Source: a virus | Taxonomy: Duplodnaviria > Caudoviricetes | Virus record (IMG/VR): IMGVR_UViG_3300036825_000147 | Coordinates: 1-34,667 of that record | DNA length: 34,667 bases | Reading direction: 5' to 3' (one strand) | Shown: positions 1-34,667 of the stretch, one piece after another | How positions within the stretch are numbered: the stretch's first letter is position 1 | Layout of the letters: every line of letters starts with the position of its first letter | Notes under the pieces: generated by a model | Databases searched by the model: none | The model's input: the letters and a program-made list of their open reading frames with translations, nothing else | Told to the model about the DNA's origin: nothing | Position numbers and translations under genes: made by a program

Positions 1-1935
1 ATGCTCCGTCCTATTTGTTATGAGCGAGTATCAAGCATTCAGCAAGTCGAAATGGGAAATGGATTGGATGATCAAAGGTCTTCTTTAACTGCCTATTTAG
101 ACAAAAATTCTGATAAGTTCACGAATGATAGAGTTTTCATAACAGATGCGGGGCTTTCGGCATTTAAAAATGCCAATATTTCACCTGAGTCTCAACTTGG
201 GATATTTTTGCAAGATGTGGGGAACCGCAAGTACGGTAAGGGTGACGCACTTATAGTCATTAGCCTTGATAGGTTATCGCGTCGTTCAAGTTGGGCTGAA
301 AGTACTATCCAGTACATCGTGAACAGCGGTGTAGAAATCCACGACATTTCTACAAATCTTGTGTTACGGGCAGATGATCCTATGTCGAAAATCCATATGG
401 AACTCATACAGCATCGCTCGCACAATGAATCATTGATGAAGTCGGTACGTGCTAAGTTAGCTTGGGATAACAAAATTTTACGTGCATTACAGAATGGAGA
501 GGTGATTTCCAATCGTATGCCTAACTGGTTAAAAAATGTTGATAACAAGTATCAGGTGATCCCTGAACAGGCTGAACTTATTGTTAAGTGTTTCGAGTGG
601 TATAGGGAGGGGCTTAGTACTGGAGAGATTGTTAAGCGTATCGGTAAAAAGTGGCAGATGGTAACAGTGTCAAGGCTGATACGTGACCGCCGCTTATTGG
701 GTGAACATGAGCGATATAATGGTGAGGTTGTACCAAATGTTTACCCGAAAATCATTGATGAAGACTTATTCCTAACGGCGAACAGGATGATGGATCGCGT
801 TATGCTGGAGAAGAAAAAGCCAGCCGAGGATCTGTTACTTGAACCTGATGAAGTTCGTGAAATTTTCAAACTGTATGAAAGTGGACTTGGCTCAGGGGCA
901 ATTGTTAAACGCTTGCCTAAAGGGTGGAGTACTGTAAATGTACTGCGAGTACTACGCGATAAGAAAGTAGTTACTATGAAGATTATCGATAATCTCACTT
1001 TTGAACGGGTCAATGAGAAGTTATCAAGGAATGGTATAGCCAATCGTATTCGTAAAGATATAACAATTGCTCAGGATGATTACATCACAAACCTGTTCCC
1101 CAAAATATTAAAGTGTGGTCATTGTGGAGGGAACATCGCCATTCACTATAACCATGTCAGAACTAAGTACGTCATTTGTCGCAACAGGGAAGAGAAGAAG
1201 ATTTGTGATGCCAAATCTTTCCAGTACACAAGAATTGAGAAGAATATTCTTCAACTTGTCAAAAACATCGATTTCAATAAATTAATGATGGAAGGACAGT
1301 CTGATGCTGACCTTTTGCTTACATCGTTGCGAGAAGAATTGTCTACTCTGAAGAAGGAAGAGGAAACCTATCAGATTAAAATTAATGAACGTAAGGTAGC
1401 AGGTAAGAAAACCTCTTTACCATTAATGACTGGTTTGACCGAGGTTCAAGATAGAATTGAAGAAATTGAATCCGATATTTTAAACGCTAAAAATATCAAA
1501 GAAATTCCTGTTTTTGACTTTGATATTAATAAAGTACTTGATCCGATGAATGTTGAACTACGTGCAAAACTAAGAAAGGAATTAAGATTAGTACTTAAAT
1601 CAGTAAAGTACTGGGTTTTTGGAAAACGTATTTTCGTTCAGTTAGAATATTTCAATGAGATCCTATCCCATGTACTTGTGATTGATAATAAGCGGGGTGG
1701 TGGTGAAGTACTACATGAAATTGTCATTTCAGAATCTAATGGTGAACGTGTTTATACGGTCAATGAAGAAGGTAAAACTGTATTCATTGCCTCAGTTACA
1801 TCTGGTACAGATATGTGGTCACTTGCTATTAGTCGTACAAAAAAACTGGATGATGTTGGATTGTATCTTAATTTACTCAATCGTGAAAATTTTGAGATCG
1901 TGGTGAATGAAGATTTGATTGATTGGATAGATTAA
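1..1935 (+). CDS. Large serine recombinase (integrase)
   Basis: N-terminal YERVSS catalytic motif, D-x-G-x-S, SLDRLSR, recombinase domain (YPKIID), zinc ribbon CGHCG...C...C, coiled coil. Confidence 0.93.
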   Translation: MLRPICYERVSSIQQVEMGNGLDDQRSSLTAYLDKNSDKFTNDRVFITDAGLSAFKNANISPESQLGIFLQDVGNRKYGKGDALIVISLDRLSRRSSWAESTIQYIVNSGVEIHDISTNLVLRADDPMSKIHMELIQHRSHNESLMKSVRAKLAWDNKILRALQNGEVISNRMPNWLKNVDNKYQVIPEQAELIVKCFEWYREGLSTGEIVKRIGKKWQMVTVSRLIRDRRLLGEHERYNGEVVPNVYPKIIDEDLFLTANRMMDRVMLEKKKPAEDLLLEPDEVREIFKLYESGLGSGAIVKRLPKGWSTVNVLRVLRDKKVVTMKIIDNLTFERVNEKLSRNGIANRIRKDITIAQDDYITNLFPKILKCGHCGGNIAIHYNHVRTKYVICRNREEKKICDAKSFQYTRIEKNILQLVKNIDFNKLMMEGQSDADLLLTSLREELSTLKKEEETYQIKINERKVAGKKTSLPLMTGLTEVQDRIEEIESDILNAKNIKEIPVFDFDINKVLDPMNVELRAKLRKELRLVLKSVKYWVFGKRIFVQLEYFNEILSHVLVIDNKRGGGEVLHEIVISESNGERVYTVNEEGKTVFIASVTSGTDMWSLAISRTKKLDDVGLYLNLLNRENFEIVVNEDLIDWID

Positions 1936-1939
1936 CTTA

Positions 1940-1979
1940 TGAACACTCTTGGCTGATTAATAATAAACAAGAGTGTTCA
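1940..1979. terminator. Inverted repeat after the integrase, possible terminator
   Basis: TGAACACTCTTG...CAAGAGTGTTCA, 12-bp stem directly after the stop codon; no strong U-tract. Confidence 0.45.
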
Positions 1980-2026
1980 AACCCTCACATACTACCTTTC
2001 ATTTCAACAACTTTTTGAAGGTTCCG

Positions 2027-2034
2027 AATAAATA
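2027..2034 (+). promoter_or_regulatory. T4-late-like promoter motif AATAAATA
   Basis: 29 nt upstream of the ATG at 2064, the same spacing as other copies. Confidence 0.45.
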
Positions 2035-2063
2035 TCTAAAAGATAATTAAAAAGGAACCTCAA

Positions 2064-2231
2064 ATGAACTTTCTAATAGAAGTACTCGCAGCCATTCTTT
2101 ACATTTTAGTTATATTCCCTATGTACATAGTCTGTTCAATCTTCTTTATGGTGCTATGTATCATTACACTACCTTTAAAGATACCAGTAATAAATAGATG
2201 GGTTAGGAACTACCTGAAACGGGAAAAATAA
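2064..2231 (+). CDS. Small hydrophobic membrane protein, 55 aa (missing from the ORF track)
   Basis: AAAGGA RBS; translates as MNFLIEVLAAILYILVIFPMYIVCSIFFMVLCIITLPLKIPVINRWVRNYLKREK. Confidence 0.7.
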   Translation: MNFLIEVLAAILYILVIFPMYIVCSIFFMVLCIITLPLKIPVINRWVRNYLKREK

Positions 2232-2436
2232 ACATGGTATAATATAGGTATCATGTACTTAACGCTTCCACTCAACTTCTTCAGTACTTCCAGATTGAAT
2301 CATCAATAAGGATTTAAAAATCCGTGAAACGATTTTGAAAAAAATCCTATACTAAAAATGTCTTCACATATCTCGCATGTTTCGAAGAATAATAATAAAT
2401 AATATATAGATTGTGACTCATCTATCTTTCCATTGA

Positions 2437-2466
2437 AAAGAAACCCTACGCCGTAGGGTTCTTTTT
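2437..2466. promoter_or_regulatory. Near-perfect palindrome flanked by A and T tracts (bidirectional terminator or operator)
   Basis: AAAAGA-AACCCTACG-C-CGTAGGGTT-CTTTTT. Confidence 0.55.
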
Positions 2467-2513
2467 ACATGGGATTTATTACGAAATCGAAATCATTTAA
2501 TAAGGAAAAACAA

Positions 2514-2684
2514 ATGAAAAACAAAAAAAAGGATGTAAAAACTAATTGTGTGACCGTGCGATTAACTGACTCTCAAGTTATCGCATTGAAGGAACTATCT
2601 AAGAGTGGAGTCTGCGACCGCGAAACACTTGCAAGTGCTTTTCAGTACTTACTAAACCAATACATCATTCTAAAAAAGGGCTAA
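2514..2684 (+). CDS. Small ribbon-helix-helix (CopG/Arc-like) DNA-binding protein, 56 aa
   Basis: TAAGGA RBS favours the ATG at 2514; alternating beta-strand VTVRLT followed by two helices. Confidence 0.6.
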   Translation: MKNKKKDVKTNCVTVRLTDSQVIALKELSKSGVCDRETLASAFQYLLNQYIILKKG

Positions 2685-2756: not shown

Positions 2757-3236
2757 ATGAAACAATGGAAAAACACACAATATGAAAACTACATAGTAAG
2801 CTCTGATGGTGAAGTTTTTAATACTAAGACTAATAGAAAACTTAAAAACTCATTAAGTAAATCGAATGGGTATTATAAAGTATCATTATCTGTAAAAGGA
2901 TATGGCAGTAAAGTTATTGAGGTACATCGTCTTGTAGCCGAAGCATTTATACCACGCAATCAATCGTTGAAATTAGTAGTTGATCATATTGATGATAATC
3001 CGTTAAACAATGAAGTTAGTAATTTACAATGGATTACTCAGAAAAATAATATTGCAAAAATTAAAAAAAGAAAGCCTGGTGTTCGTTTTACAAAAGAAGA
3101 GAAAGAAGAAATTATTAGTACTTACAAAACTGGCAAGTACTCATTGATTGGAATAACAAACTATTTCAATAATCTTTGGAATCGTTCAGTATCACGTCAA
3201 GCTTATACAAGAATTATAAAAAAAGCAGGGCAATAA
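2757..3236 (+). CDS. NUMOD4/HNH homing-type endonuclease
   Basis: WK..Y.VSSDGEV, GYYKVSL, VHRLVAEAFIP, VDHIDDNPLNNEVSNLQW. Confidence 0.88.
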   Translation: MKQWKNTQYENYIVSSDGEVFNTKTNRKLKNSLSKSNGYYKVSLSVKGYGSKVIEVHRLVAEAFIPRNQSLKLVVDHIDDNPLNNEVSNLQWITQKNNIAKIKKRKPGVRFTKEEKEEIISTYKTGKYSLIGITNYFNNLWNRSVSRQAYTRIIKKAGQ

Positions 3237-3310: not shown

Positions 3311-3772
3311 ATGGCAAAGACCTATTCAACTTTTGATAACAGAAACATAAAGGCACTAATTAGCCAGTACAAGCTATATAAAGATATCCCATGTGAAGAT
3401 ATCAAGAACATTATGAAGGATTCAGTAGCTAAGCTTAAGGTGAGAGATAAGATTAGTGTCTATGACGTGTTTACAGTATTGAGTAATGAAGATGAAATAC
3501 GAAATGATTTACTATTCAATACTATCAATACTATTAAAGTACAACAGGATAAGAAACAAGTAAAAGAACGTATGATTAGGTACTACGGGGCAGCGATCAC
3601 GGATGCAGCAAAACGAATAGAGCAGTATTTGATGGCACACCCAGACGCTCTGCCAGCACCAGCATATGGACAAAGAACACTAACATATAAAGAGGTTGGT
3701 AATCTATTAGAACTACAAAAACAAGGTTATTTTATTGATGACATGATCGAGTACTTAAAGAGCTTGCGTTAA
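3311..3772 (+). CDS. Hypothetical protein (153 aa), candidate origin-binding/replication initiator
   Basis: ACAGGAG RBS supports a start at 3311 rather than 3176; lies directly upstream of the iteron-like repeats; function inferred from position only. Confidence 0.55.
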   Translation: MAKTYSTFDNRNIKALISQYKLYKDIPCEDIKNIMKDSVAKLKVRDKISVYDVFTVLSNEDEIRNDLLFNTINTIKVQQDKKQVKERMIRYYGAAITDAAKRIEQYLMAHPDALPAPAYGQRTLTYKEVGNLLELQKQGYFIDDMIEYLKSLR

Positions 3773-3775: not shown

Positions 3776-3864
3776 TGCCTTATTACGGCATATTACGGCA
3801 TATATCCATGCCGTATTACGGCAGAAAAAGCCCCTGAAACCCGCGTTCTACCATCAATACGGCA
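3776..3864. repeat. Iteron-like TATTACGGCA repeats
   Basis: Copies at 3781, 3791 and 3814; TACGGCA at 3858; palindrome TGCCGTA-T-TACGGCA at 3809-3823. Confidence 0.85.
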
Positions 3865-4235: not shown

Positions 4236-4967
4236 ATGAACAGAAAACAATTCATCCAGTCGCATGGTGCTACTTGTAGTAACTGGAATTGGAGTTGGTC
4301 ATTTGTGAATCACGACAAGAAAATGGTGATCTTTGGTGCTTGGGATGTTCAGAAAGAGCAAGAAAGATCAGTCATACTGAGGGAGCGGTGGAAAACCAAA
4401 GTAGTGGAAGGCAGGGTAAGAAAAAATCTGGGATACATTCAAGCTATTGAACACATCCAATTGATAGCTGAAGGTTATGATCTTTTCACTTTTAATATGG
4501 AACAGGGGCGAAACGATGAAGATAGAGATGTTGCTGTTATCAAACGTTTCACTCCTAAACTTGAAAAGCGTTACCTTCGAAAAGAAGGTCCAGTTTGGTA
4601 TGCAGATTTTTTGCCTAATCCGTTCCCTGACGAGATTACCTCACCTGAAAACTACGCTGAAGGAGCAAAAAAGCAAATTACAGTAAACTCTTACGAGCGT
4701 GATCCAAAAGCACGGCAGGCTTGTATTGACCATCATGGAACTTCATGCATGTGTTGTGGATTTGACTTTGAGAAAGTCTATGGTGAACACGGAAAAGGAT
4801 TTATACACGTTCATCATATCAAACCACTACATACAGTAGGTGAGAACTATGTAGTAAACCCGATTGAGGATATGGTTCCCCTTTGTCCTAACTGTCATGC
4901 AATGATACATAGGGGAAGTGAAGTCTTAAGTTTAGAAACATTAAAATTAATAGTTGAGAAAAAATGA
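4236..4967 (+). CDS. HNH endonuclease with a McrA-like C-terminal domain
   Basis: YERDP..R..C, CMCCGFDF, IHVHHIKPL, PLCPNCHAMIH; GAGGA RBS. Confidence 0.85.
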   Translation: MNRKQFIQSHGATCSNWNWSWSFVNHDKKMVIFGAWDVQKEQERSVILRERWKTKVVEGRVRKNLGYIQAIEHIQLIAEGYDLFTFNMEQGRNDEDRDVAVIKRFTPKLEKRYLRKEGPVWYADFLPNPFPDEITSPENYAEGAKKQITVNSYERDPKARQACIDHHGTSCMCCGFDFEKVYGEHGKGFIHVHHIKPLHTVGENYVVNPIEDMVPLCPNCHAMIHRGSEVLSLETLKLIVEKK

Positions 4968-5419
4968 GTATATTAACAGTAGCAGCTAAATATAAAGATT
5001 TGTTTTCAGTGCTTTCGTTTATCATAGCATGTACTTCCTTATTTTTTTCAGGTAGAACAGCATGGCATGATAGATCGAGATTGAAAATTTCAGGTCGAGT
5101 TGTATACGAACCGGTTTACGAAAAGGCTTATAAAATTGAAGTGTCAGTTCTGAATGTTGGCAGGCGTGATGCTGTATTAGAAGGGATTCTATGCCATTAC
5201 GAAGGGAATAATACCAGACATAGTTATGAAAAAAATGGATTTATACTAAAAGAAAAGCAAAGAGAAATGTTTCAAATAGAGTTCAGGGATTTAGTAATTA
5301 CAGATGATGATGGAAATGCTTATGAGTTAGAAAACATTACCGTATTGGATGTTGAAGGGAAAGAGCATGAAATTCCTAATTCAAAAAATCTTATTGCAAG
5401 GTTTTCTAAAGATGCATAA
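4964..5419 (+). CDS. Hypothetical protein with an N-terminal membrane anchor
   Basis: ATGA overlap with the HNH gene; hydrophobic residues about 13-30. Confidence 0.7.
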   Translation: MSILTVAAKYKDLFSVLSFIIACTSLFFSGRTAWHDRSRLKISGRVVYEPVYEKAYKIEVSVLNVGRRDAVLEGILCHYEGNNTRHSYEKNGFILKEKQREMFQIEFRDLVITDDDGNAYELENITVLDVEGKEHEIPNSKNLIARFSKDA

Positions 5420-5579
5420 CCTATCGAAAATAAAGATAGCTAAAAAATACGAGTGAATTAGAAAGTCTCATACGGAATATGATAATTTAAGTTGGTTTTT
5501 AGACTCACTACATTTAGGAGGCTGTTTGTTTAAATGGCATATGTTAGAATCGTCATATGCAAACAGCAGGGAAAACAAA

Positions 5580-6107
5580 ATGCAAATCATGAGGATGACA
5601 TACGACGATATTGATAATAATGGCTACGCCAAATTACACGTCTATGGAATAGGAACTTTCTCGGTTTTTAGTGGGCAAAACCCATATACCAATGATCCCA
5701 ACTGTGCGTACTTACCAAACAGTGCAATACCTACTGGAAGGTACTGGATAGTTGATAGGCCAACTGGCTCTACACTGAATAAGATCCGGGCATGGGGCGT
5801 TGATACAATCACAGGTAATGACCACTCCGAATGGTTTGCACTCTTCAGTGCTCAAACCATGACAGATAGCATAATGATTAACGGTGTATCACGTGGTAGT
5901 TTCCGGTTACATCCACTCAGGCCGGATGGTTCTGGTTTCTCAGAGGGGTGTATTACTTTCGTCAATCGACCGGATTTCTACACTGTACGTAGTCAGTTGC
6001 TCCGTACTAAAAAGGTTAAAGTACCAGGATCAAGGACTGGATTGATGGCATATGGTTATGTTGATGTGCAAGGGGGGAGCGACTATGCGAAGTGCAGGAT
6101 TCGTTAA
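5580..6107 (+). CDS. DUF2778 / Tlde1-like (L,D-transpeptidase-fold) protein
   Basis: AIPTGRYWIVDRP and FRLHP...SEGCIT (His/Cys motif); ATG at 5580 preferred over the TTG at 5526. Confidence 0.75.
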   Translation: MQIMRMTYDDIDNNGYAKLHVYGIGTFSVFSGQNPYTNDPNCAYLPNSAIPTGRYWIVDRPTGSTLNKIRAWGVDTITGNDHSEWFALFSAQTMTDSIMINGVSRGSFRLHPLRPDGSGFSEGCITFVNRPDFYTVRSQLLRTKKVKVPGSRTGLMAYGYVDVQGGSDYAKCRIR

Positions 6108-6360
6108 GAATGCGGCCATATACAGTATCTGTATTGTCTTTGCATGGTGGCTATCAAGTTTCGGTAAGCCTCTCAATGGACTAACTCAATGGGTCATGGA
6201 TACCGCCTATAGTACTTTCGGTTCAAGCCTGAGTGGTTCATATGAAGCTGATGCAGATCCGGTAAGGTTCATCGCCTTAATCCTGATGGTTCTTATCTAC
6301 GCTACCATACTGTTCTTGCTCACACGCTTAGTACTCAGAAAGTTTCAGGCCAATCGCTAA
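6085..6360 (+). CDS. Small two-TM membrane protein coupled to the DUF2778 gene
   Basis: GGGGGAG RBS before the ATG at 6085; overlaps the upstream gene end; two hydrophobic segments. Confidence 0.7.
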   Translation: MRSAGFVKNAAIYSICIVFAWWLSSFGKPLNGLTQWVMDTAYSTFGSSLSGSYEADADPVRFIALILMVLIYATILFLLTRLVLRKFQANR

Positions 6361-6377
6361 TACCTCATTTTATTAAG

Positions 6378-6411
6378 TACCCTCACTGCATATGGTGAGG
6401 GTATTTTTTTT
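6378..6411 (+). terminator. Rho-independent terminator
   Basis: TACCCTCAC-loop-GTGAGGGTA followed by a T-tract. Confidence 0.85.
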
Positions 6412-6466
6412 GTACTTAATTACTGGCTCTAAGAATAAATACATCAACAATAGATGAGGTGAGTTT

Positions 6467-6709
6467 ATGGAAAAATATATTATTAACGGTTTTGTTTATG
6501 AAGTGATTGGCAATGTGATAACCGTCCAGCCAGTGCAAGAATTTAAGTTTCAATTTTATCCAAGCGGAAATCAGTCATGCCCTGTATTTTCTATCAAACA
6601 TTATGTCATTGATGAACTACTGAACATGGGAAATGATGAATTATTCAATGCTTCACTAACTGATGAGACTATCATTACTGCAAAGAGTTTAGTGTCTAAT
6701 CAAAATTGA
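6467..6709 (+). CDS. Hypothetical protein
   Basis: GAGGT RBS; AATAAATA at 6434-6441. Confidence 0.65.
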   Translation: MEKYIINGFVYEVIGNVITVQPVQEFKFQFYPSGNQSCPVFSIKHYVIDELLNMGNDELFNASLTDETIITAKSLVSNQN

Positions 6710-6769
6710 GCTGAAAACAGTAAATATATAGAAAGGTTAGCAGTACTAACCCACTATAGGATTTACGAA

Positions 6770-7027
6770 ATGATAAGAATGGAATTTAACACCTATGATG
6801 ATGGAACATACTATTTCCTGTATGTTACAGAGGAAGTACGTATTGAAACTAATGGTTCTGATGGTTTGCAGATGGAAACCTTTGATTCGAGGGTAAGGGA
6901 TTTAGGTGATCCGTTCCAGTACTTAACGATCAAAGAACGAAAAGATGAGTACTTCAACGAAAGCCTATGTAATCAGTACATAGATACTGTTATTGAAGCA
7001 ATCAAAACACTTAATGGGTTGATATGA
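6770..7027 (+). CDS. Hypothetical acidic protein
   Basis: TAGGA RBS; AGTAAATA at 6719-6726 plus a leader hairpin GGTTAG/CTAACC. Confidence 0.65.
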   Translation: MIRMEFNTYDDGTYYFLYVTEEVRIETNGSDGLQMETFDSRVRDLGDPFQYLTIKERKDEYFNESLCNQYIDTVIEAIKTLNGLI

Positions 7028-7102
7028 AGGTGATGATTTTATTTGAGAATGATGACCTTAACTTAAAGCATGATCATCACAACTCTTGTACCATCTATAA
7101 TG

Positions 7103-7786
7103 TTATTTAAAGAGAGTATCAAAATCCACAGTCAAATTTCTAATTGAGTCGGCTAATGATTTATGTATTTCTTCAACATCTAATTTTTTCTGCTGCCATA
7201 ATAGAATTACATTATGTACGGTGTTTTTGTTATCAAATGGGTATGGTAAATCAGAAGTTAGTCTTTCTAATTCTATAAGGTTTTTAATCAGTGAGTGGAT
7301 CTTATCTTCTTGCTGTAATTCTATTTTCCATATTTTTAAACTTTTGAGTCTTGTGCTAAAATTAATTGCTTTTTTTATGAACTCTTGCCAAAGTTCATTA
7401 TGTCGTTTGAAGTTATCTAAAAGATCACTTGGAGTAGCGTTATCCTCAGGCTTAATTATTAACCTGTAACTTGCTAACAAATGCTGTTGCAATATCCTTA
7501 ACTGTATCATTTCTGCCATACACATACTGGCTTGCTTGAATCCTTCATGTTGTATCTTAGGAGAGATCCAATCTTTCGCATTGTACGCAGCATAGACTGC
7601 CGCACCAGCCATCGCCATATTACATACAGCACTTACCCAATCTGTTACGCTCCCCCATTCGAATCCTTTTACATTCAGAAAAAGAACCTTGATAAGTACT
7701 AAGATTGCAACAATGAAAAGAACTATAATGATGCCTAATAAAGAAAAATTTGTTTTTTTAAATTCCACTGTTGAAAAAATCCGCAA
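7103..7786 (-). CDS. Membrane-anchored hypothetical protein, paralogous to 33972-34667
   Basis: 227-aa ORF (TTG start, uncertain) with two N-terminal hydrophobic segments and a shared motif AY..K.W...KI....FK. Confidence 0.7.
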   Translation of the reverse strand: MRIFSTVEFKKTNFSLLGIIIVLFIVAILVLIKVLFLNVKGFEWGSVTDWVSAVCNMAMAGAAVYAAYNAKDWISPKIQHEGFKQASMCMAEMIQLRILQQHLLASYRLIIKPEDNATPSDLLDNFKRHNELWQEFIKKAINFSTRLKSLKIWKIELQQEDKIHSLIKNLIELERLTSDLPYPFDNKNTVHNVILLWQQKKLDVEEIHKSLADSIRNLTVDFDTLFK

Positions 7787-7847
7787 TTAAATTTATTGAT
7801 CAATTATTGTACTTTACCACTGTAAACGCAATCAAGTACACTCCGGT

Positions 7848-7906
7848 TTCACGCTACACCTATAAATGGGTGGTTTGTAGTAGGGTATATGTAGGTGTAG
7901 CGTGAA
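7848..7906. repeat. 15-bp perfect inverted repeat with a 29-nt spacer
   Basis: TTCACGCTACACCTA (7848-7862) / TAGGTGTAGCGTGAA (7892-7906). Confidence 0.85.
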
Positions 7907-7907
7907 G

Positions 7908-8222
7908 TTAGAACGGTAGTTCTTCTTGTCCACAAAACCAATCATCACCATGTTGTTCATATACACGTTGTTCAGCATGTAGATAACTCATAGCGTCCAG
8001 TACAGTTTTGAATGGCGTTTCGCTAATCAGTACAAAACAATCCCTTTCAACCGTTCCCAGCCAGAACACCCCGCCTACAGAACCTTCAAATATCACCCGA
8101 TCACCAAACTTGAATTGCTCAAGAGCACTCCCCCAGTAACAGACCGTGAACCATACCCCATTGTTGGAGAACTGGTGAACACCTCTACGTATGGATGGAT
8201 CGTAACCGTTCTTATTACCCAT
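7908..8222 (-). CDS. Putative SOS-regulated hypothetical protein (104 aa)
   Basis: GGGAGG RBS before the ATG at 8222; LexA box immediately upstream; C-terminus QEELPF. Confidence 0.75.
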   Translation of the reverse strand: MGNKNGYDPSIRRGVHQFSNNGVWFTVCYWGSALEQFKFGDRVIFEGSVGGVFWLGTVERDCFVLISETPFKTVLDAMSYLHAEQRVYEQHGDDWFCGQEELPF

Positions 8223-8240
8223 GCTCAAGCCCTCCCATGA

Positions 8241-8260
8241 TACTGTGCATTCATACAGTA
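8241..8260. promoter_or_regulatory. LexA (SOS) box
   Basis: TACTGTGCATTCATACAGTA matches the gammaproteobacterial TACTGT-N8-ACAGTA consensus. Confidence 0.88.
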
Positions 8261-10117: not shown

Positions 10118-10128
10118 ACCTCATTAAA

Positions 10129-26264: not shown

Positions 26265-26819
26265 ATGTTAAATAACACACTTATTAGTGATTTCATGTTG
26301 ACGGATAATATACCGCAATACCAAAACCAAACATGGACAGGTGAAACTATTACACGTGTTGTTGGTTCGCAGTACTTTACCCTTAGTTTCAAAGTTACCT
26401 TGAACAAGATGAACCGTGTTGAACTCGCTAACTTCTACGCTTTATATGGTCAGGGTAAACCGTTTTCTATGCCTCTTGGATGGTGGAGTACATATACTGG
26501 TACTCAAATCTCACAGGTACAAACAACCGCAACAAGGGCAGCAGGGGCAACTTCAATTTCCGTAAATGCTAATACACTTGAGGTTGGTACGTTAGTGCAA
26601 TTCAACGGACACAAGAAACTATACCGAATCATAGCCAACACTGGCAACGTGATTACTATCTTCCCTGGATTAATAAAAAACATCCAAGTTGGGGAGGTAA
26701 TGAAATATGACAATATTCAAGGTTCATTTATTCTTACACCACAGAACGCAGCATATCAGATGCCAAGTACAAACATTATGGAAGTAACAATAAATGCAAC
26801 TGAAAACATCAGAGGTTAA
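26265..26819 (+). CDS. Distal tail protein-like
   Basis: Synteny after the tape measure gene. Confidence 0.6.
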   Translation: MLNNTLISDFMLTDNIPQYQNQTWTGETITRVVGSQYFTLSFKVTLNKMNRVELANFYALYGQGKPFSMPLGWWSTYTGTQISQVQTTATRAAGATSISVNANTLEVGTLVQFNGHKKLYRIIANTGNVITIFPGLIKNIQVGEVMKYDNIQGSFILTPQNAAYQMPSTNIMEVTINATENIRG

Positions 26820-26822
26820 TTT

Positions 26823-27467
26823 ATGTCAATTCCAAGTATTGTACTAACTAATGCGGATCTTGTCGCGTACTGGAATCTTACACGAGGCGATAACAAAACC
26901 GTACTAACAGAAAAAGAACTATATCAATGTGGTGTTATGGTAAAACTAATAGATGTACTTCCACCTACTGGAAGTAACATATATCTAACTGATGCCATTG
27001 CCGATCAAAACTTTAATGGAATTAACTATAAGTCTGTACCTGATTTCCTTGATTCATCATTTGCAAACTATGTTGAAAAAACACAAATCAACAATAACGG
27101 TACTTCTTTGAAAGTAAGTAATGTAAGCCAGGATTATCTATCTATGGCGTTACGTGGATTGTGGAATGATGCCAAAGTTAATATCTGGATGGGTATAGTT
27201 AATCCAGCTACAGGGGGCATTCTATATGCCTATCGTATGTTTAGTGGTTACATTGATTACTTTAGTTCAGACTTTAACAACACAGCAGGTAATATAACAA
27301 ATGAAACAACGGTAAATCTAAATTCATTGTGGAAGAAGTTAGACCAAACACAACGCTTGTTATCAAGTACATCAGTACACCAATCATTACACACTGGTGA
27401 TAAGTTCTTTGACCTAATCGGAATACTAAATAGTTCAGAGCAATTCTGGAAGAGTAGTAAGAAATAA
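26823..27467 (+). CDS. Minor tail / baseplate hub protein (gpL-like position)
   Basis: Synteny; YLTD, FSGYID and GDKFF motifs. Confidence 0.6.
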   Translation: MSIPSIVLTNADLVAYWNLTRGDNKTVLTEKELYQCGVMVKLIDVLPPTGSNIYLTDAIADQNFNGINYKSVPDFLDSSFANYVEKTQINNNGTSLKVSNVSQDYLSMALRGLWNDAKVNIWMGIVNPATGGILYAYRMFSGYIDYFSSDFNNTAGNITNETTVNLNSLWKKLDQTQRLLSSTSVHQSLHTGDKFFDLIGILNSSEQFWKSSKK

Positions 27468-27862
27468 TGAAAAACGGATTTATAACAGAGTACCTAAGTG
27501 GTTTAGTTGGTAAACCTTTAGTGTACGGTACTAATGATTGTCATATCATGGTACTCACAGTCATTGATATGATCACAGGTAGTAATTACCGTGATGAAAT
27601 CTATCAGAAATACACAACACCAACAGCAGGTAGAAAATACGCAAAAGCTAACTGTAGTTATTCTACTCTACATCTATTGTGTAAAGAAAAAGGCCAATTA
27701 GTCAGTGAACCACTTGATGGGGATATCATCATTTCATCAGGTCACAGTACAGTTTATTGGCGTGGGAAAGTAGTAATTTTATCAGAAGATAAATCTAACT
27801 ATATCGTTTCTCAATATATCCCAAATGAAAAAGACAAAATATACAGATTTAAAGGGGAATAA
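27467..27862 (+). CDS. NlpC/P60-like tail assembly protein (gpK-like position)
   Basis: YGTNDC...GD.....GH. Confidence 0.65.
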   Translation: MKNGFITEYLSGLVGKPLVYGTNDCHIMVLTVIDMITGSNYRDEIYQKYTTPTAGRKYAKANCSYSTLHLLCKEKGQLVSEPLDGDIIISSGHSTVYWRGKVVILSEDKSNYIVSQYIPNEKDKIYRFKGE

Positions 27863-27864
27863 CT

Positions 27865-30800
27865 ATGGCAGTAGCAGCAGTTGCCGTAGCTATTATCGCA
27901 GGGGCATCAGCAGCCGCAGCCGCATACGCAGCAGGGTTAGCTTTAGCAGCAGTAGTAGCTATAGGTATTGGTACAGCAGCACTATCTTACATTAGTTCAT
28001 CACAGATGATGAATGTAGGCCAAATGGGGGTAACGTATCCGAGTACGGGTAGTAACAATGCCCGATCAACATCACCAAGTACTGGCATACCGATTTCATA
28101 CGGCGGTTCTAACCGCAACGCAACAGAGGTAGCCTATAACAAGTTAGGCTCTATCGTCGTATGGCAGAACGTCTATAAAGATACTTCAAACCAGCTATGT
28201 ACGGTTCACGCGATCAGTATCGGTGAAATCGGGCAAGTACCAGGGGAACAATCACAAGGCGTAATCAAGCAGATCTATTTTGATAATGCTCCGGTACTCA
28301 TGGATGGTGCGTACATCATCACAGAAGGGATCGTACCTACCTCAATGATGATTGAGAAGTACCGTAAGTACCTACAGATTGAGGTACGTTTCGGTAAGCC
28401 GTCCTACGGCGGTTCTATGACGCTTGCCCGTCAATATGGCGGTAGTCAATGGACTGACAACATGCGTGGTGATGGTCTTGTACAGATCTGTACCGTAATC
28501 AAGAAAACCAACGATTCATTGATTGATGGGATTCTAACGAACCAGAACTATACGTTATCGGTAGAAATGCGTGGACGTATGATCTATGACTTAACTGATA
28601 ATGTACGTAAACCAAGTTCAAACCCTCCAAGCCAACTATATGACTTTATCACTAATACAGAGTTTGGATTCGGCCTTGATCCTAATGATATTGATATTAC
28701 CAGTTTCCGTAATATGGCAAACTATTGTGCTCAGAATCATTTCTATTCCAATGGTAATATTCAATATGATAAATCCTTTAAGGAAAACATTGAAAATATT
28801 CTACAAACATTTGGTGGTGTACTTTATGAATCAAACGGTAAGTACTATCTAACCGTTGATGCTCCAGACATTCCAAGTTTACATTTTGATGAAACAAATA
28901 TTATTGGCAGTGTGAATATCACAACGGGTTCTAAGTCTGACTATTTTAATACAATGGACAGTACCTATACAAACCCAGGCAATGACTATTCGCAAGATAT
29001 TATCCGTTATCCAAGTGATGCCATTAGTAACGCATCCATTGCTAAAGATGGTTATATTATTAAGAAGGATTTAAACTATCTTTGGGTACAGGATAAAAAT
29101 CAGCTTGCTATTCTTAGTAACATTGAATTACTAAAATCTAAGTACATTACGAACACGATTACTTTCAATACTTATGTAACAGATATGAAAGTATATGATG
29201 TGTTTACAATTGATTTTAAAGAAGCTGGATTTAGTAATAACAAGTACAGATGTATTCAACGTACTGTACCAATGACCGTAGATAAAGCAGGCATTATCCA
29301 GATCACCGCGATTTCGTATGATGATGGTATATATCAAGGAAAAGATCCGGGACAATTCCCACAAGATGGATTGACCAATCTACCTAACCCAACATACGTA
29401 GAACCGCCAAGTAACCTACAGGCTCAGCGTCTTGGGGCAACAGCATCAGGTAACACCGTTCTATTAACATGGGATCTTAGTCAGGATACAACTGTACGTG
29501 GTTATAAGATTCGTTATAAACGCAGTGATTCCAGTGTTTGGATCAGCATTGGTAACGTAGGGCAGTACTCTACGAGTTTTGAGATATTAAATCTTCTATA
29601 TGGTGTTCAGTACGACTTCGCTATTGAGTCGTATAATACCCTTGGTTATTCATCGGAATTAGTAGCTATCTATAATCAAACACCACAAGTTATATTCGCA
29701 TTACCGAAGATTACTAACCTTGATATGGTGAATGATGATGTAGGTTTAAACCAGACTTATGCTCAAGATTTCATTTTACGTTGGGATGATCAGGCTAACA
29801 TAGCCGTAAATGGTAAAACATTTGCTGATTTCTTCAAACATTATGAAATTCGTGTGTATGACCGATACAGGAACTACATCACATCGTACTACACCACTAC
29901 AAGCAACTGGACGTACTCATATTCAATGAATACCAGTGATGGCCTTAGCCGTTACCGTGTGTTTGGGATCATCGCTCATGGTTGGGGTACTGGTATCTAT
30001 AGTGAAGAAGTTCAGATTGAAGTTAGTAACCCACAACACCCACAATTGTTAGGTATCAATTTGAAGAGTGGTTATGATTCTGTGTTCATCGACTGGACTG
30101 AATCAAACGTACCGGATTATGCGGGGATAGTGCTTCAAATCGCACTTGATGAGGGGTTTAGTTCAGGGTCGAAGTACTTTAGCAGTGCTAACCGCTATTC
30201 AGCATCGTTTGGTATTGAAGATGGTTCATGGTTCGCACGTGTAGCAGCCTATGACGTTTTCGGACAGGATGAATTGGTATGGTCGCCTACTATCGGCTTT
30301 AACCAAAACACGAAGGTTCCATACAGCAAATTGAACGAAGATGTTATTGATAGTCTTCTAAATAGTGATACTGCTACTGGTATTGTTGAGAAACAGATCG
30401 TAGATGAACTTGGTTCACGCTGGCAGCTACAGGTATCAAACAACGGTAACGTAACGGGCATTGCTTTAGCCGCAGATGAAAAAACATCAGTGTTTACCGT
30501 AATGGCGGATCGCTTTAGTGTTATCAGTACGGATAGTGCCAAACTATCAGACAGGGTTTATCCACTTGTTGTTCAAAATGGGAAAGTATTTCTTAACTCA
30601 GCGGTTATAGCGTCAGCGAGCATCAACGAGGCCATGATAAATGACCTAAGCGTCTCACGAGCGAAAATTCAATCCGCAGCGATCGACAGTACAAAAATTG
30701 CACAAGCCTCGATCCTCAATGGGCACCTGGTTAATGGAATTATCGACTCTGCGAAGATATCCCAACAGATACAAAGTACTAACTGGGATGGTACGAATGG

Positions 30801-31395
30801 TTGGATGATTAACAAGAACGGTACAGCCAACTTTGGTAACGCTACTATTCGCGGTACGATTTTTGCGAACAGCGGAGTACTCAACAACGTTACTATCAAT
30901 GAAAACTGTAACATTCTTGGTACTTTAAGTGCCGCACGTATCGTAGGTGATATTTGCCGTCCTCAATCGACGGGTATCAACCCTGTACCGTTTATCTTTG
31001 GTTCACGTACTGTTTCTGGTGGTCAGGCCGCATTAGATCCAGTAGCAAACCAACACTATGTAGCGTTGCGTATTCGTGGTGAAGATTTCCCACGTTACTT
31101 CGATAGTGATTTATCAATTAGCTTGACCTCATATGAACGTCAATACTTCTATATTCGTATGGGTGGTGATGGAATTGGTTTAACCAACTTGTTCTATTAT
31201 GATGCTGGTAACGGTGGTAGTTCTACATCTTTCAGATTGAATTCTATATATGTACCGCCTGTTGGTCGTGGAAATTGGAACTATATCTATGTGATGTGTA
31301 CAACTTCACGTAGTGGCATTGCTTCACTTAATGTTCCTGCTAACTGGTCTTCATTCTTATATCGTGCTGGTGATCAACCTTTATATAATGCGTAA
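27865..31395 (+). CDS. Central tail tip / host specificity protein (gpJ-like, FN3 domains)
   Basis: 1176 aa; IPISYG, SSNP, FN3 (PPSNL, LTW, GYKIRY), F.VMADRF, GWMINKNG. Confidence 0.88.
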   Translation: MAVAAVAVAIIAGASAAAAAYAAGLALAAVVAIGIGTAALSYISSSQMMNVGQMGVTYPSTGSNNARSTSPSTGIPISYGGSNRNATEVAYNKLGSIVVWQNVYKDTSNQLCTVHAISIGEIGQVPGEQSQGVIKQIYFDNAPVLMDGAYIITEGIVPTSMMIEKYRKYLQIEVRFGKPSYGGSMTLARQYGGSQWTDNMRGDGLVQICTVIKKTNDSLIDGILTNQNYTLSVEMRGRMIYDLTDNVRKPSSNPPSQLYDFITNTEFGFGLDPNDIDITSFRNMANYCAQNHFYSNGNIQYDKSFKENIENILQTFGGVLYESNGKYYLTVDAPDIPSLHFDETNIIGSVNITTGSKSDYFNTMDSTYTNPGNDYSQDIIRYPSDAISNASIAKDGYIIKKDLNYLWVQDKNQLAILSNIELLKSKYITNTITFNTYVTDMKVYDVFTIDFKEAGFSNNKYRCIQRTVPMTVDKAGIIQITAISYDDGIYQGKDPGQFPQDGLTNLPNPTYVEPPSNLQAQRLGATASGNTVLLTWDLSQDTTVRGYKIRYKRSDSSVWISIGNVGQYSTSFEILNLLYGVQYDFAIESYNTLGYSSELVAIYNQTPQVIFALPKITNLDMVNDDVGLNQTYAQDFILRWDDQANIAVNGKTFADFFKHYEIRVYDRYRNYITSYYTTTSNWTYSYSMNTSDGLSRYRVFGIIAHGWGTGIYSEEVQIEVSNPQHPQLLGINLKSGYDSVFIDWTESNVPDYAGIVLQIALDEGFSSGSKYFSSANRYSASFGIEDGSWFARVAAYDVFGQDELVWSPTIGFNQNTKVPYSKLNEDVIDSLLNSDTATGIVEKQIVDELGSRWQLQVSNNGNVTGIALAADEKTSVFTVMADRFSVISTDSAKLSDRVYPLVVQNGKVFLNSAVIASASINEAMINDLSVSRAKIQSAAIDSTKIAQASILNGHLVNGIIDSAKISQQIQSTNWDGTNGWMINKNGTANFGNATIRGTIFANSGVLNNVTINENCNILGTLSAARIVGDICRPQSTGINPVPFIFGSRTVSGGQAALDPVANQHYVALRIRGEDFPRYFDSDLSISLTSYERQYFYIRMGGDGIGLTNLFYYDAGNGGSSTSFRLNSIYVPPVGRGNWNYIYVMCTTSRSGIASLNVPANWSSFLYRAGDQPLYNA

Positions 31396-31432: not shown

Positions 31433-31711
31433 ATGGACATCTTAACGATTGGTTCATTGATTGTTTCAGCTTTAGTATTGTGCTGGACTGTTTATAGGGA
31501 TTTTACATCTGACTCAGACGAATTAGATGCACGTATTTCTACCGTTGAAACGAAAGTTGCTTTGATGGATCAGTCTCTAACTTCGCTTGAGCAGGAACAA
31601 GATCAAATGAAGAAGACATTAAAAAACTTAGAAGATAGTGTACATATGCTTGATATTAAAATTGAGCGTGTAATTACAATGCTTGAAACGCTAAGAAATA
31701 AAAGGGGCTAA
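31433..31711 (+). CDS. Single-TM coiled-coil protein, possibly lysis-related
   Basis: N-terminal TM plus heptad region; adjacent to the lysozyme gene; AATAAATA at 31394-31401. Confidence 0.55.
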   Translation: MDILTIGSLIVSALVLCWTVYRDFTSDSDELDARISTVETKVALMDQSLTSLEQEQDQMKKTLKNLEDSVHMLDIKIERVITMLETLRNKRG

Positions 31712-31725
31712 ATAGCCCCTTTTTT
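31700..31725. terminator. Bidirectional terminator between convergent genes
   Basis: AAAAGGGGCTA-AA-TAGCCCCTTTTTT. Confidence 0.8.
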
Positions 31726-32170
31726 ATTTGTTGGTGAGTTCTGCAATCATCTGATCTACTCGTGATTTAGTTTGTCTGTACCAGAGTGAATCTTTAGCCT
31801 GTACAATCGCTTCTTTATAGTTTTTATCACGTAAGGCTTGAATCATCTTTCTGAACTTTAAAGTACCTGATAGACCAAGTTGAAAAACCATAATGGTCAT
31901 GAAGTCCTGCCAGTCAGAAGGCAAATCTAATCCTAATGAGCGAACAGAATACTTAGCAGTACTGATATCTTCTTCTAACATCCGTTCGGCTTGTTCTGGT
32001 GCAATACCGTTTGGATATGATTCACCAGGTTTTAGTAGTCGACCGTACCCAATAGTTTGATAACCAAGGCTATCTTTATATGTCCAAAATTTACCATTCT
32101 TAAAATAACCAATTTTAGTTTGATAGGCAATTGATCCCTCATAGCTAATTAGCCTGTTTTTTAAATCCAT
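31724..32170 (-). CDS. Endolysin, T4-lysozyme-like (GH24)
   Basis: EG...YKDSLGYQTIGYG, FQLG, SLWYRQT..R mirror T4 lysozyme motifs. Confidence 0.9.
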   Translation of the reverse strand: MDLKNRLISYEGSIAYQTKIGYFKNGKFWTYKDSLGYQTIGYGRLLKPGESYPNGIAPEQAERMLEEDISTAKYSVRSLGLDLPSDWQDFMTIMVFQLGLSGTLKFRKMIQALRDKNYKEAIVQAKDSLWYRQTKSRVDQMIAELTNK

Positions 32171-32172
32171 TA

Positions 32173-32210
32173 AATAAATACCTTATAATAATTATCATAG
32201 GGTATTTATA
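32173..32210. promoter_or_regulatory. Face-to-face pair of late-promoter motifs serving the divergent lysozyme and GIY-YIG genes
   Basis: AATAAATA (+, 32173-32180) and TATAAATA (-, 32210-32203), 29 and 32 nt from their respective ATGs. Confidence 0.62.
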
Positions 32211-32641
32211 TGAAGCAATGGAATTACAATGATGATTGGAGTGAGGAAGAATTAACAAACGGTAGTTATGTAGGATTCGTGTACTTGTTCCAGTTCGAAG
32301 ACAGCACCTTTTATATTGGTAGCAAACAGATGTATAAGAGAGTTAAGGATGTTAAGAAAATAAAAGCTAATTCAGTTGAAAATGGATGGCGTGAGTACAG
32401 TTCAAGTTCAAAGATAGTTAATCAAAAGATAGAAGATGGATTAGATTATACTCGTACCATTTTATGGGCTTTTCCATCAATGAAAGAAACACTATTCGTA
32501 GAAACAGCACTAATCATTAATCAGGGATTGAAAGCGGGAAATATTAATCTTTCCGTTATGCATAAGGCACGTTTGCCAAGTGGAAAGGATGCTGTACGTT
32601 TACGTGGAATACTTCAATCATTATATGAAATAATAAATTAA
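32210..32641 (+). CDS. GIY-YIG family nuclease-like protein
   Basis: GFVY-x9-YIG motif, WREYSSSS, conserved Glu and Asn downstream. Confidence 0.72.
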   Translation: MKQWNYNDDWSEEELTNGSYVGFVYLFQFEDSTFYIGSKQMYKRVKDVKKIKANSVENGWREYSSSSKIVNQKIEDGLDYTRTILWAFPSMKETLFVETALIINQGLKAGNINLSVMHKARLPSGKDAVRLRGILQSLYEIIN

Positions 32642-32650: not shown

Positions 32651-33262
32651 ATGGCATGGCGTAGAGGGCATAGCCCACAAAATATGAGAACCTTCATTAA
32701 CCGAAACAGCCCACGTATAGGTTCACAGTTCAAGAAAGAACTAAGTGATCGTATGCGGATTGTTTCGAAAGAAATTCAACAGAAGATAAGCAGTGAAGCG
32801 GCAGGTGGGGTAGTGTCATTTACATCACGTTCTGTATTCTTCAAATTTCAAAAAGTTAATAACTTCGAAACCGTAAACCAGATCATAGTATTACCTAACC
32901 AAACCTCATACTTAAAATACATCCTTGACCCTTCCTATAAGACTACTACAGAAAAGAAAATGATTCCTATTAGTAGTAACGCAAATATGACTAAAGAAGG
33001 GAACATTAAGCAACTTCGGGCTAAATCCAGAAGTAATAAATACAAAAAGGTGAAGAGCAGGAACGGTAACACGTACTTAATCGACACTACCAAGAAATCA
33101 TCTAAGCGTAATCCAAAGCTGGCACGTGAAAAGAGGGTTATTGGTTACTATGGTTCCGTAGGCAGAAAACCATTGTTTGATTTCTACGATGAAACCGAGA
33201 AACAAGTAATAGAACAATTAAGAACATTACGCGGTACGTTTGATTACCGTTGGAGGAATTAA
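32651..33262 (+). CDS. Basic hypothetical protein, possibly a displaced neck/tail completion protein
   Basis: 203 aa, K/R-rich, AAGGA RBS; function guessed from composition. Confidence 0.5.
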   Translation: MAWRRGHSPQNMRTFINRNSPRIGSQFKKELSDRMRIVSKEIQQKISSEAAGGVVSFTSRSVFFKFQKVNNFETVNQIIVLPNQTSYLKYILDPSYKTTTEKKMIPISSNANMTKEGNIKQLRAKSRSNKYKKVKSRNGNTYLIDTTKKSSKRNPKLAREKRVIGYYGSVGRKPLFDFYDETEKQVIEQLRTLRGTFDYRWRN

Positions 33263-33263
33263 G

Positions 33264-33584
33264 ATGGATAACTTAGAAAATTTCCCATGTTATGATCATA
33301 CTGTACTAACAGATTTTTCTTTTCAGACAATCCAACCAGTAAGTGTAACCATACCATATGATAAAGCACTATCTGGTAGTAAGCTCATAAAAAAGAAGGT
33401 TGATAAAACAAAAGGTGATTTAGTCGTATACAGCTTTCATCATCATACAAAACCTAACGTAACTGATGGTGATGTACTAATGGTGGAGTTGCTAAAAGAT
33501 AAAATAGACGTTCAGGTACTACTATCTTATAACCACATCTATAAAGGTCATCGCGTATTTTCTTGTGTTTGCCAAATACAATAA
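33264..33584 (+). CDS. Hypothetical protein
   Basis: GGAGG RBS supports the ATG at 33264. Confidence 0.65.
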   Translation: MDNLENFPCYDHTVLTDFSFQTIQPVSVTIPYDKALSGSKLIKKKVDKTKGDLVVYSFHHHTKPNVTDGDVLMVELLKDKIDVQVLLSYNHIYKGHRVFSCVCQIQ

Positions 33585-33593
33585 GGACTAATT

Positions 33594-33887
33594 ATGATTG
33601 GTGTGATAGTAGAACTACTAACAAAAGGTGTGGACTTCTTTCTAAAACGTAAAACGATAGAACAGGAAGTGCAGAAAACAAATGCTGAAGGACAAATAGA
33701 AACCAACAAAGAAGAGATAGAAAAGGTTACTTTCCACTGGCGTAATGCTCTTGGATTTGTGATCACCTTAATCATTCTCTATAACTGGATCATAGTACCA
33801 GTACTGGATGCTTTCGGTATCGTGGTCATTCAAGTACCATTAGGGCAACTACTGCAAGTACTATTGATTATGGTCGGCGGAAGCTAA
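33594..33887 (+). CDS. Putative holin (3TM-holin-like)
   Basis: WRNALGFV...YNWIIVP and C-terminal hydrophobic segments. Confidence 0.62.
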   Translation: MIGVIVELLTKGVDFFLKRKTIEQEVQKTNAEGQIETNKEEIEKVTFHWRNALGFVITLIILYNWIIVPVLDAFGIVVIQVPLGQLLQVLLIMVGGS

Positions 33888-33910
33888 AAAAAGCCCCTGG
33901 TGGGGCTTTT
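33886..33910. terminator. Bidirectional terminator
   Basis: AAAAAAAGCCCC-TGGT-GGGGCTTTT. Confidence 0.8.
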
Positions 33911-33971
33911 ACTTTATGATAACTAACAACGAAACTTGTGTATAATTAATTTAAGAAATATTTACTTGTTA

Positions 33972-34667
33972 TTAGTTGTTGCTGTATTTGAATATGTCAA
34001 TGTATTTCCTTTTCAGTAGTGCATCATATATATAACCAACAGTGTCAATTCTTCCAACAATGCTATTGGCAAGTGTTTTTATATCTTCGTTACTTAATTT
34101 CTTTGCTTGGTTAGCATTAGAGGAGAACATAGCCAATTGTTCTCTAATAGTATTGCATTCAGATTGACATGTAGTAAGATGAACCCTGGTTTTTTCCCAG
34201 TGTTTTTTACATTTAAATATAATTCCCCAATGCGAGAAGCTATGTATAAGTAATATTTGATTGCTTATGCAAATAAAATAATCTTCTTGGATTTTATTTA
34301 TTTCTTCTTTAAGTGTTAGAGCGTTTTTTTCTGTTAACTTTTCTGTTTTTGCCACATGTAGTAGTGCATACTTCAAACGAGCTAATATAACCATCAATTT
34401 TAAAAATTCTTCAAGTAATTCCTCAGAACGTTTAAATGCTTTTTCATTAATTTTAGAATTAACCCATTTTTTAACTTGATATGCTGAGTAGATCGCCAAG
34501 AGTAAAGCACAGACCGCTACAGTTGCTGATAAACCTGGGGCAGTAATTTTCTTTGGGTTTTTAAATAAAAGCCATGTGATAAATTCGGTTAGCAATACAC
34601 CTACAAATAATGATTTTATATGTAAAAGTTTAACTCGTTCAAATTGTTTTTTAGCCCATTTTTTCAT
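33972..34667 (-). CDS. Membrane-anchored hypothetical protein, paralogous to 7103-7786
   Basis: 231-aa ORF with two N-terminal TM segments and the shared motif. Confidence 0.72.
   Translation of the reverse strand: MKKWAKKQFERVKLLHIKSLFVGVLLTEFITWLLFKNPKKITAPGLSATVAVCALLLAIYSAYQVKKWVNSKINEKAFKRSEELLEEFLKLMVILARLKYALLHVAKTEKLTEKNALTLKEEINKIQEDYFICISNQILLIHSFSHWGIIFKCKKHWEKTRVHLTTCQSECNTIREQLAMFSSNANQAKKLSNEDIKTLANSIVGRIDTVGYIYDALLKRKYIDIFKYSNN

Follow-up and report, generated by a model that had tools for sequence, protein, structure and literature searches.

Known phage satellites lack either a virion of their own (P4, the phage-inducible chromosomal islands (PICIs), the PICI-like elements (PLEs) and I55), or tails (the capsid-forming PICIs (cf-PICIs), MulchRoom and Ando), or integration (MiniFlayer). 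The virus record IMGVR_UViG_3300036825_000147, analysed here over its entire 34,667 bp (the window), holds an integrative element with a siphovirus gene set in which virion, tail and integration functions occur together. This element is most probably a virion-complete satellite, which would be switched on by two sigma factors of a Rak2-like jumbo phage and shielded from a putative GCGC-directed destruction of DNA. Full-text literature searches, which did not cover most subscription papers, gave no description of the element family or of GCGC loss in these jumbo phages.

The PLEs of Vibrio cholerae are chromosomal, use a large serine recombinase, encode an initiator of their own and must survive the destruction of the host chromosome; a lytic helper induces them and is restricted by them. 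The window likewise has a large serine recombinase, and its relatives are chromosomal. The helper relation would also be alike, the helper of the PLEs being the lytic phage ICP1 (available portions of PMC12772148, PMC10690885). PLEs, however, span about 18 kb and steal ICP1 capsids, with helper virion proteins in place of a capsid and tail of their own, whereas in the window terminase, portal, capsid, fibres, a full tail and lysis functions are all encoded by the element itself. The cf-PICIs and P4 are integrated and carry defence genes as cargo, and P4 uses transcription factors of its helper. Both types depend on temperate helpers, the cf-PICIs having capsid and packaging genes and no tail and P4 no virion; tyrosine integrases and AlpA/Stl-type regulators are characteristic of PICIs, cf-PICIs and P4. 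In the window, by contrast, tube, tape measure, Dit, hub and fibres accompany a serine recombinase, and no regulator of these types was matched by its ORFs or by cluster representatives from ten relatives.

Own capsid and packaging genes combined with missing replication genes, a virulent helper (a putative one for the window) and a composition matching that helper are features that the window shares with MiniFlayer, MulchRoom and Ando of Streptomyces and Phanie of Acinetobacter (as far as the available text of PMC10690885 and PMC13587820 describes them). In the same portions MulchRoom and Ando borrow tails and Ando is without lysis genes, whereas the tail and lysis genes of the window are complete; MiniFlayer is non-integrating and attaches to its helper, whereas the window element integrates and would depend on two helper sigma factors. 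As in the satellite viruses MiniFlayer and MulchRoom, virion proteins are encoded and a full replication machinery is lacking: no helicase or primase was matched in the window, and some relatives have helicase-like initiators. The I55-type islands transduced by the Pseudomonas jumbo phage JPTI55 are alike in their defence cargo and would be so in their jumbo helper; they differ, in the accessible parts of PMC12595487 and PMC12772148, by a tmRNA integration site, a tyrosine integrase, the lack of virion genes and packaging in the jumbo capsid, in place of which the family has ybhA or yeaG sites, a serine recombinase and virion genes.

Promoter motifs and the early operon

An earlier note on this DNA had described a full head, tail and lysis set, and lambda-type packaging and head genes, a siphovirus tail, a fibre pair, a lysozyme and a holin were indeed found; the terminase, portal, capsid and tail open reading frames (ORFs) are intact in 11/11 elements. 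The Rak2-like jumbos, which unlike the window are virulent myoviruses of about 350 kb, were examined because the best matches of the lysozyme lay there. They have in common with the window both promoter motifs, the absence of GCGC, codon usage and the lysozyme family.

According to the available portion of its description (PMC5259590), the jumbo phage CBB has ATAAATA as its late motif and genes for a gp55-like factor, gp33/gp45 being absent, and for a sigma70-like one; a further class of its promoters, located upstream of DNA-synthesis genes, has the -35 box TGAAACG. A promoter of this 'middle' type, P1 (TGAAACG-N13-TGGTATAAT; 2215..2243, +), lies in the early region of the window. With a position weight matrix (PWM) built from GAP32 and BF sites it scores 29.2 bits, compared with a median of 32 for the sites themselves and 17.3 for the best of 20 simulated windows, and none of seven control phage samples gave a match of at least 13 bits. 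A second promoter of the class (TGAAACG-N16-TATACT) follows at 2325..2353 (+), and all nine relatives that have a left end carry a promoter of the P1 class upstream of the early operon.

The -35 box differs among the jumbos. TGAAACG-N16/17-TANNNT occurs 20 times in GAP32, 23 times in CBB and 11 times in BF, nearly always on the same strand, and only twice in 121Q and once in RaK2, where the alternative boxes are TGRGAC/TGGGAT and TGAACA, respectively; a sigma70-like gene is present in all five (four above the cut-off). For the window copy the helper is likely to be of the GAP32/CBB/BF type (Mimasvirus/Eneladusvirus). The 121Q-type box is found in two elements at the E. coli ybhA site and in the G012 element; this pattern occurs once per host genome, within the element, in three of four genomes, the fourth element having a TATACT variant. 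In G009 both box types stand in tandem.

The late signal had been described as a promoter motif preceding structural and lysis genes, which holds for its core and not for the full word. The exact 8-mer TATAAATA is not enriched (5 copies versus 2.4-4.7 expected; +11288, +13079 within terL, +22785, +26209 and -32210, four of the five at gene junctions), and its count was dropped as evidence by itself. What is conserved at gene junctions is TAAATA with variable first bases (NTAAATA), found 16-91 nt upstream of 9/22 late-module starts as against 7.6% of random 75-nt windows. Among distinct sequences it precedes the tail tube gene in 22/22 (one mis-anchored row excluded), Dit in 22/22, the lysozyme gene in 25/25, the GIY-YIG gene in 24/24 and the 92-aa lysis gene in 21/22, the single exception being a copy disrupted by an insertion sequence. 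It lies at the stop codon in 37/82 genes followed by a gap of 25-100 nt, compared with 4/153 and 5/175 of the others; since the 11 elements are interrelated, these counts are not independent. In the window, TATAAATA stands before the terminase small subunit gene (11288..11295, +), where TAAATA occurs in 7/10 elements and, counted separately, in 3/6 distinct sequences; another copy overlaps the stop codon before the tail tube gene (22785..22792, +), and further cores lie in the tail module at 23322 and 26211. Between the lysozyme and GIY-YIG genes (32171..32210), two face-to-face motifs form a hairpin that covers the opposite gene's ribosome-binding site, in an arrangement like that of T4 genes e and 49. 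The same junction architecture was seen in T4, RB49, ViI, RB43, 121Q and RaK2 and is largely absent from the PVP-SE1, FelixO1 and T5 samples.

Between the recombinase, which ends at 1935, and the first accessory gene at 4236 there are 2.3 kb, the distance given earlier. A terminator-like hairpin followed by a T run (2430..2472, +) separates the promoters from the first gene of the operon and is visible at the same place in 12 leaders inspected. That gene (2514..2684, +) encodes a ribbon-helix-helix (RHH)-like protein, as suggested by an ESM Atlas match of 0.92 to an RHH_1/CopG cluster and by alignment; it had no Pfam match. It aligns with small proteins of relatives, is clustered in 8/11 elements and may be a DNA-binding regulator, a candidate autoregulator or excision factor. 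A NUMOD4-HNH endonuclease gene follows (2757..3236, +), the place of which is taken in some relatives by a different nuclease-like family; a nuclease-like early gene of this slot also occurs in GAP32.

The last of the early genes encodes a 153-aa protein (3311..3772, +) with 13 close homologues and no others, no Atlas match and a low-confidence AlphaFold model (pLDDT 48). Directly behind it lie three TATTACGGCA-type direct repeats and an inverted copy (3776..3830), a candidate origin. In many relatives the equivalent slot holds SF2-helicase-like proteins of 450-1000 aa, and primase-helicase-like proteins are also seen; each slot gene has its own repeat set, which changes with the gene. From this comparison the 153-aa protein is likely to be an origin-binding initiator and the adjacent repeats its origin. 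Sequencing run X1, compared over window positions 1-12000, contains several variants of the element, one of which skips 2685-5537 with the HNH gene, the slot gene and the origin, indicating that the replication slot is swapped as a module. Small slot proteins of two other members (L004, reverse strand, 18060-18536; L012:8703-9227) resemble RaK2 ORF075 (21-27%).

That no regulator or replication gene is recognisable, another statement of the earlier note, stands as far as known families are concerned and is qualified by the RHH-like ORF and by the slot gene with its repeats. The 43 window ORFs gave no match to CI/Cro, N/Q, sigma, polymerase, primase, helicase, repressor or antiterminator families, and 74 cluster representatives of other ORFs (at least 55 aa, ten relatives) none to repressor, sigma, antiterminator or polymerase families; the CI/Cro switch and N/Q antiterminators of lambdoid phages are thus not seen in either set, remote homologues being possible. 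Polymerase, single-stranded DNA-binding protein and clamp were unmatched in both. Profile and structure searches of the kind proposed revealed no repressor, sigma or activator family and did reveal the RHH/CopG match, the 153-aa and 203-aa proteins being without a clear one. Given the conserved RHH protein and the leader terminator, the description of the element as silent without a repressor was too strong.

GCGC loss and composition

GCGC is absent from the window, as had been noted (0 versus 73 expected, both strands). The family loci have none in 30/33 cases and a single end-proximal site in the other three, and in the 10 near-complete relatives GCGC is confined to the host flanks. The same tetramer is missing from the whole genomes of 121Q, GAP32, BF and RaK2 (308, 513, 318 and 244 expected; 346-359 kb, stretches L055-L072 and L076-L129) and from 11/11 viral-contig stretches with a capsid at least 88% identical to that of GAP32, whereas it is present in all nine other lytic phages sampled (T4, RB49, T5, FelixO1, ViI, PVP-SE1, RB43, phi92 and N4). 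Several of these had been considered as helpers, namely T5 for its GCGC nick sites, Seunavirus for the shared fibre, and FelixO1, phi92 and N4; all were ruled out because they keep GCGC. The total loss in the jumbos suggests a phage-encoded, sequence-specific nuclease directed at host DNA. T4 EndoII is ruled out as the cause of GCGC loss by loose CG specificity and normal CCGC counts: the CG pair alone is conserved in its sites, according to the available part of PMC2764454, and CCGC is not depleted in the window or the family loci.

Codon usage points in the same direction. Relative synonymous codon usage of the window correlates with that of the four jumbos at r 0.85-0.94, with that of the nine other phages, represented by partial genomes, at 0.49-0.82 and with that of E. 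coli at 0.11; for the 4-mer signature, GCGC and CTAG removed, r is 0.52-0.67 with the jumbos and 0.26-0.50 with control phages, likewise partial genomes. Apart from a few genes there is nearly no protein similarity between elements and jumbos, and nothing significant was found in DNA similarity to 121Q beyond the fibre and lysozyme genes. CTAG is also absent from the window (0 versus 188 expected); it has been lost in some family members and is frequent in the rest as well as in the jumbos. Avoidance extends, as in lytic phages, to many six-base restriction sites. Two dataset numbers are common to element and jumbo contigs (L028/L152 and L045/L162). In runs X2 and X9 the GAP32-like stretch L153 was represented only by short diverged pieces.

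Proposed cycle and competing explanations

What can be read directly from the DNA is the gene set, the conserved positions of both promoter motifs, the leader hairpin, the slot repeats and the lack of GCGC, and the element could use them in the following manner: In the chromosome, the leader terminator, perhaps together with the RHH protein, would hold down expression of the early operon. Upon infection by a jumbo, the sigma70-like factor of the helper would read TGAAAC-17-TATAAT, leading to expression of the RHH protein, the HNH endonuclease and the initiator, and thereby to excision and to replication from the repeats by helper or host replication proteins. While a putative jumbo nuclease destroys host DNA containing GCGC, the GCGC-free element would survive. 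The gp55-like factor of the helper may then read NTAAATA, enabling expression of head, tail, lysozyme and nuclease genes; the element would package itself in its own particles, which could infect new cells unaided and integrate there. Dependence on the jumbo is likely for the early and late sigma factors and probable for the replisome. The proposal of the earlier note, an own virion whose transcription depends on a lytic phage encoding gp55, is supported in this form and strengthened by a second, helper-specific promoter class; its choice of a T4-like helper is not supported.

Several points weigh against this reading. P1 has an extended -10 (TGnTATAAT), a type of promoter for which host sigma70 needs no -35, and the early operon may thus not need a helper sigma. 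In 3/10 elements terS lacks TAAATA upstream, and the conserved 153-, 203-, 106- and 55-aa ORFs could hide a late activator. A LexA-box-like site, the single one in the window (8243..8258), precedes a conserved 104-aa gene (7908-8222, -; phrog_2100), which could encode an antirepressor. The relatedness of the element sequences takes independence from all conservation counts, and the control phages were 17-30 kb samples compared with whole jumbo genomes. N4 is GCGC-poor too (2 seen versus 7 expected), and the absence of CTAG is not common to the jumbos. The search for a GCGC nuclease was negative, with a HinP1I-family member in 0/5 jumbos. L153 was missing from run X5 and from run X1, which may be the source of the window, although absence from contigs is uninformative.

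The same extended -10 and RHH-like protein would suit an autonomous temperate phage, in which host sigma70 reads P1, the RHH protein acts as repressor, the 104-aa protein as a LexA-controlled antirepressor and an unrecognised ORF as the activator of TAAATA, the jumbo-like signals merely allowing escape during jumbo infection. LexA-controlled antirepressors are known from phages 186 and Fels-2, and the LexA-box-like site precedes the same small gene in 10/11 elements; many relatives have their own initiator, and the pronounced avoidance of many restriction sites is a sign that infection cycles are frequent. We nevertheless consider an autonomous phage unlikely: the -35 variants follow the jumbo genera, the scanned ORFs include no sigma or activator family, the LexA-associated gene is lacking or not seen in the annotations of G009 and of the E. 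coli ybhA relatives, and the 50,697 phage records hold no cultured member of the family.

A T4-like helper, as the earlier note would have it, from the Straboviridae or else the Ackermannviridae could account for the TAAATA junctions, which have the same architecture in T4, RB49, RB43 and ViI, and for the GIY-YIG gene, the best phage matches of which are T4-like phages (30-33%); modified T4 DNA itself needs no GCGC loss. However, T4, RB49, RB43 and ViI keep GCGC, their samples (25-30 kb) contain no match to the early-promoter PWM, their codon and 4-mer match is weaker, and the loose specificity of EndoII (PMC2764454, available part) is at odds with undepleted CCGC. The early promoter and the GCGC loss fit Rak2-like jumbos instead, which makes such a helper very improbable. 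Hardly any more credible is a jumbo-sensing defence or suicide island with vestigial or tailocin-like virion genes and no transmissible particle. Its cargo is defence-like, decayed copies exist, and the tightly occluded nuclease together with the lysozyme could kill the infected cell; against it speak the terminase, portal, capsid and tail ORFs, which are intact in all 11 elements, at least two integration sites, the presence in many genera and the mosaic early and accessory modules.

If the jumbo-dependent satellite is real, it inverts the usual dependence, since virion and lysis are its own and transcription is borrowed. Resembling ordinary or defective prophages, such elements would escape satellite finders as well as induction by mitomycin C. 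For the poorly studied Rak2-like jumbos, total GCGC loss and genus-specific sigma specificities become testable. Among these jumbos are several candidates for phage therapy (directed at Klebsiella, Enterobacter, Cronobacter and E. coli); lysogens could blunt them and could release satellite particles into therapy preparations.

Related elements, integration and gene content

As the window ends with the record, evidence on flanks came from integrated relatives, in which nothing extra was seen outside, the check that had been proposed for att sites and missing genes. Ten near-complete virus records (G001-G010, G010 without its left end) were compared in addition. In both sets the recombinase abuts host DNA and cargo genes alone follow the holin, which argues against a regulatory module hidden outside the window. 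Integrated relatives occupy the E. coli ybhA site and, as a decayed copy, a site beside yeaG; among the source names of homologues are Klebsiella, Enterobacter, Cronobacter, Raoultella, Pantoea and Pseudescherichia. Cultured phages contain no close relative among the 50,697 records, the best capsid match being 29%.

A blind search with a relaxed promoter pattern gave 46 matches in 38/301 genomes of one enterobacterial family, which is near the control rate and unspecific. Sixteen places (18/46 matches) were inspected, most matches in small AT-rich genomes, including one TGAAACA, being left out. In genomes of at least 3.8 Mb, eight of nine TGAAAC[GA] places are surrounded by family genes in stretches devoid of GCGC (10.5-13.8 kb or, in one case, an entire contig of 2.9 kb), and at four of these eight places terminase genes of the window type are in view; for the other promoter variants, one of seven inspected places was an element. 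In G277 (C1 about 529,600-567,500; L235, L248, L249) a GCGC-free island of ~38 kb has the same early module and, as cargo, a T7-like RNA polymerase (two ORFs) behind TAAATA, a T7-type endonuclease and a podovirus-type head, together with the same 940-aa lateral fibre, an endolysin and an EAL gene; it is likely to represent a second virion type triggered by jumbos. G301 (L233:6480-17016) has a 10.5-kb GCGC-free island with a serine recombinase, a jumbo-type promoter, a helicase-like initiator and a DNA methyltransferase, in which no virion genes were seen, possibly a virion-less or decayed jumbo satellite. Two tandem jumbo-type promoters in G077 (L238:9951, 10362), each before a repeated short ORF, lie in a 2.4-kb GCGC-free patch without family genes, possibly a jumbo-sensing locus.

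We lean, with some reserve, towards a widespread guild of integrated enteric elements that would sense Rak2-like jumbos via a plug-in module (serine recombinase, genus-matched promoter, RHH protein and initiator), would be immune to GCGC-directed destruction and would carry varied cargo: a complete siphovirus in the window, a complete podovirus with T7-like RNA polymerase in G277 and a virion-less island in G301. If so, the -35 box would predict the helper genus from the sequence alone.

The large serine recombinase (1..1935, +; Pfam Resolvase, Recombinase and Zn ribbon) belongs to a clade that integrates beside yeaG in relatives. Just inside attL, a TATAAT would, once the element is circular, be joined to an improved -35 and could then serve as a host promoter for the integrase. 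A candidate att core with inverted arms was seen beside yeaG (ends of G001 and G002; starts of L008-L010 and L012), and the right end of elements at the ybhA site, adjacent to the split host gene, carries a replacement pyridoxal-phosphatase gene (L001:33819-34658, L002:28201-29043). Downstream of the recombinase, a 55-aa hydrophobic protein is encoded (2064..2231, +), with AATAAATA upstream at 2027; it is clustered in 9/11 elements.

The packaging and head genes (11342..18276, +) encode TerS, gpA-type TerL, a head-tail joining protein, a lambda-type portal, a protease-capsid fusion and connectors. A GC-rich conserved motif just upstream of terS (11270-11290), present in several relatives, is a candidate cos site. 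The lateral fibre pair (563 and 940 aa; 18279..22789, +) follows, the larger sharing 55-56% identity with fibres of Seunavirus/Vequintavirinae and 51% with a 121Q protein, and then tail tube, chaperones, tape measure, Dit, hub and central fibre (22844..31395, +). The lysis end comprises a 92-aa membrane/coiled-coil gene (31433..31711, +; TAAATA at 31396), a T4-type lysozyme (31724..32170, -; best phage matches Rak2-like jumbos, 47-49%) and a SegE-like GIY-YIG nuclease found in 11/11 elements (32210..32641, +). The conserved 203-aa and 106-aa proteins and a holin with three transmembrane segments complete the order (32651..33887, +); the former two are probably tail completion or closure proteins, the 203-aa protein having no clear fold match and weak HK97 gp10 rows at most. 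Scans of the window gave no tmRNA or tRNA and no Rfam family.

The variable accessory block (4236..11153) contains HNH/type IV restriction endonuclease-like, Tlde1-domain, EAL-domain and membrane genes. Contigs from the RNA runs X17 and X19 cover accessory genes within 1-12000 alone and are uninformative on silence of the remainder. The 104-aa protein ends in QEELPF (Q(G/E)ELPF in the family), which we take to resemble a beta-clamp-binding motif. The stand-alone EAL-domain protein (9434-10117), present in 9/11 elements, may lower cyclic di-GMP and with it the level of a glycan receptor to which the rV5/121Q-like lateral fibre would bind, judging from general receptor biology.

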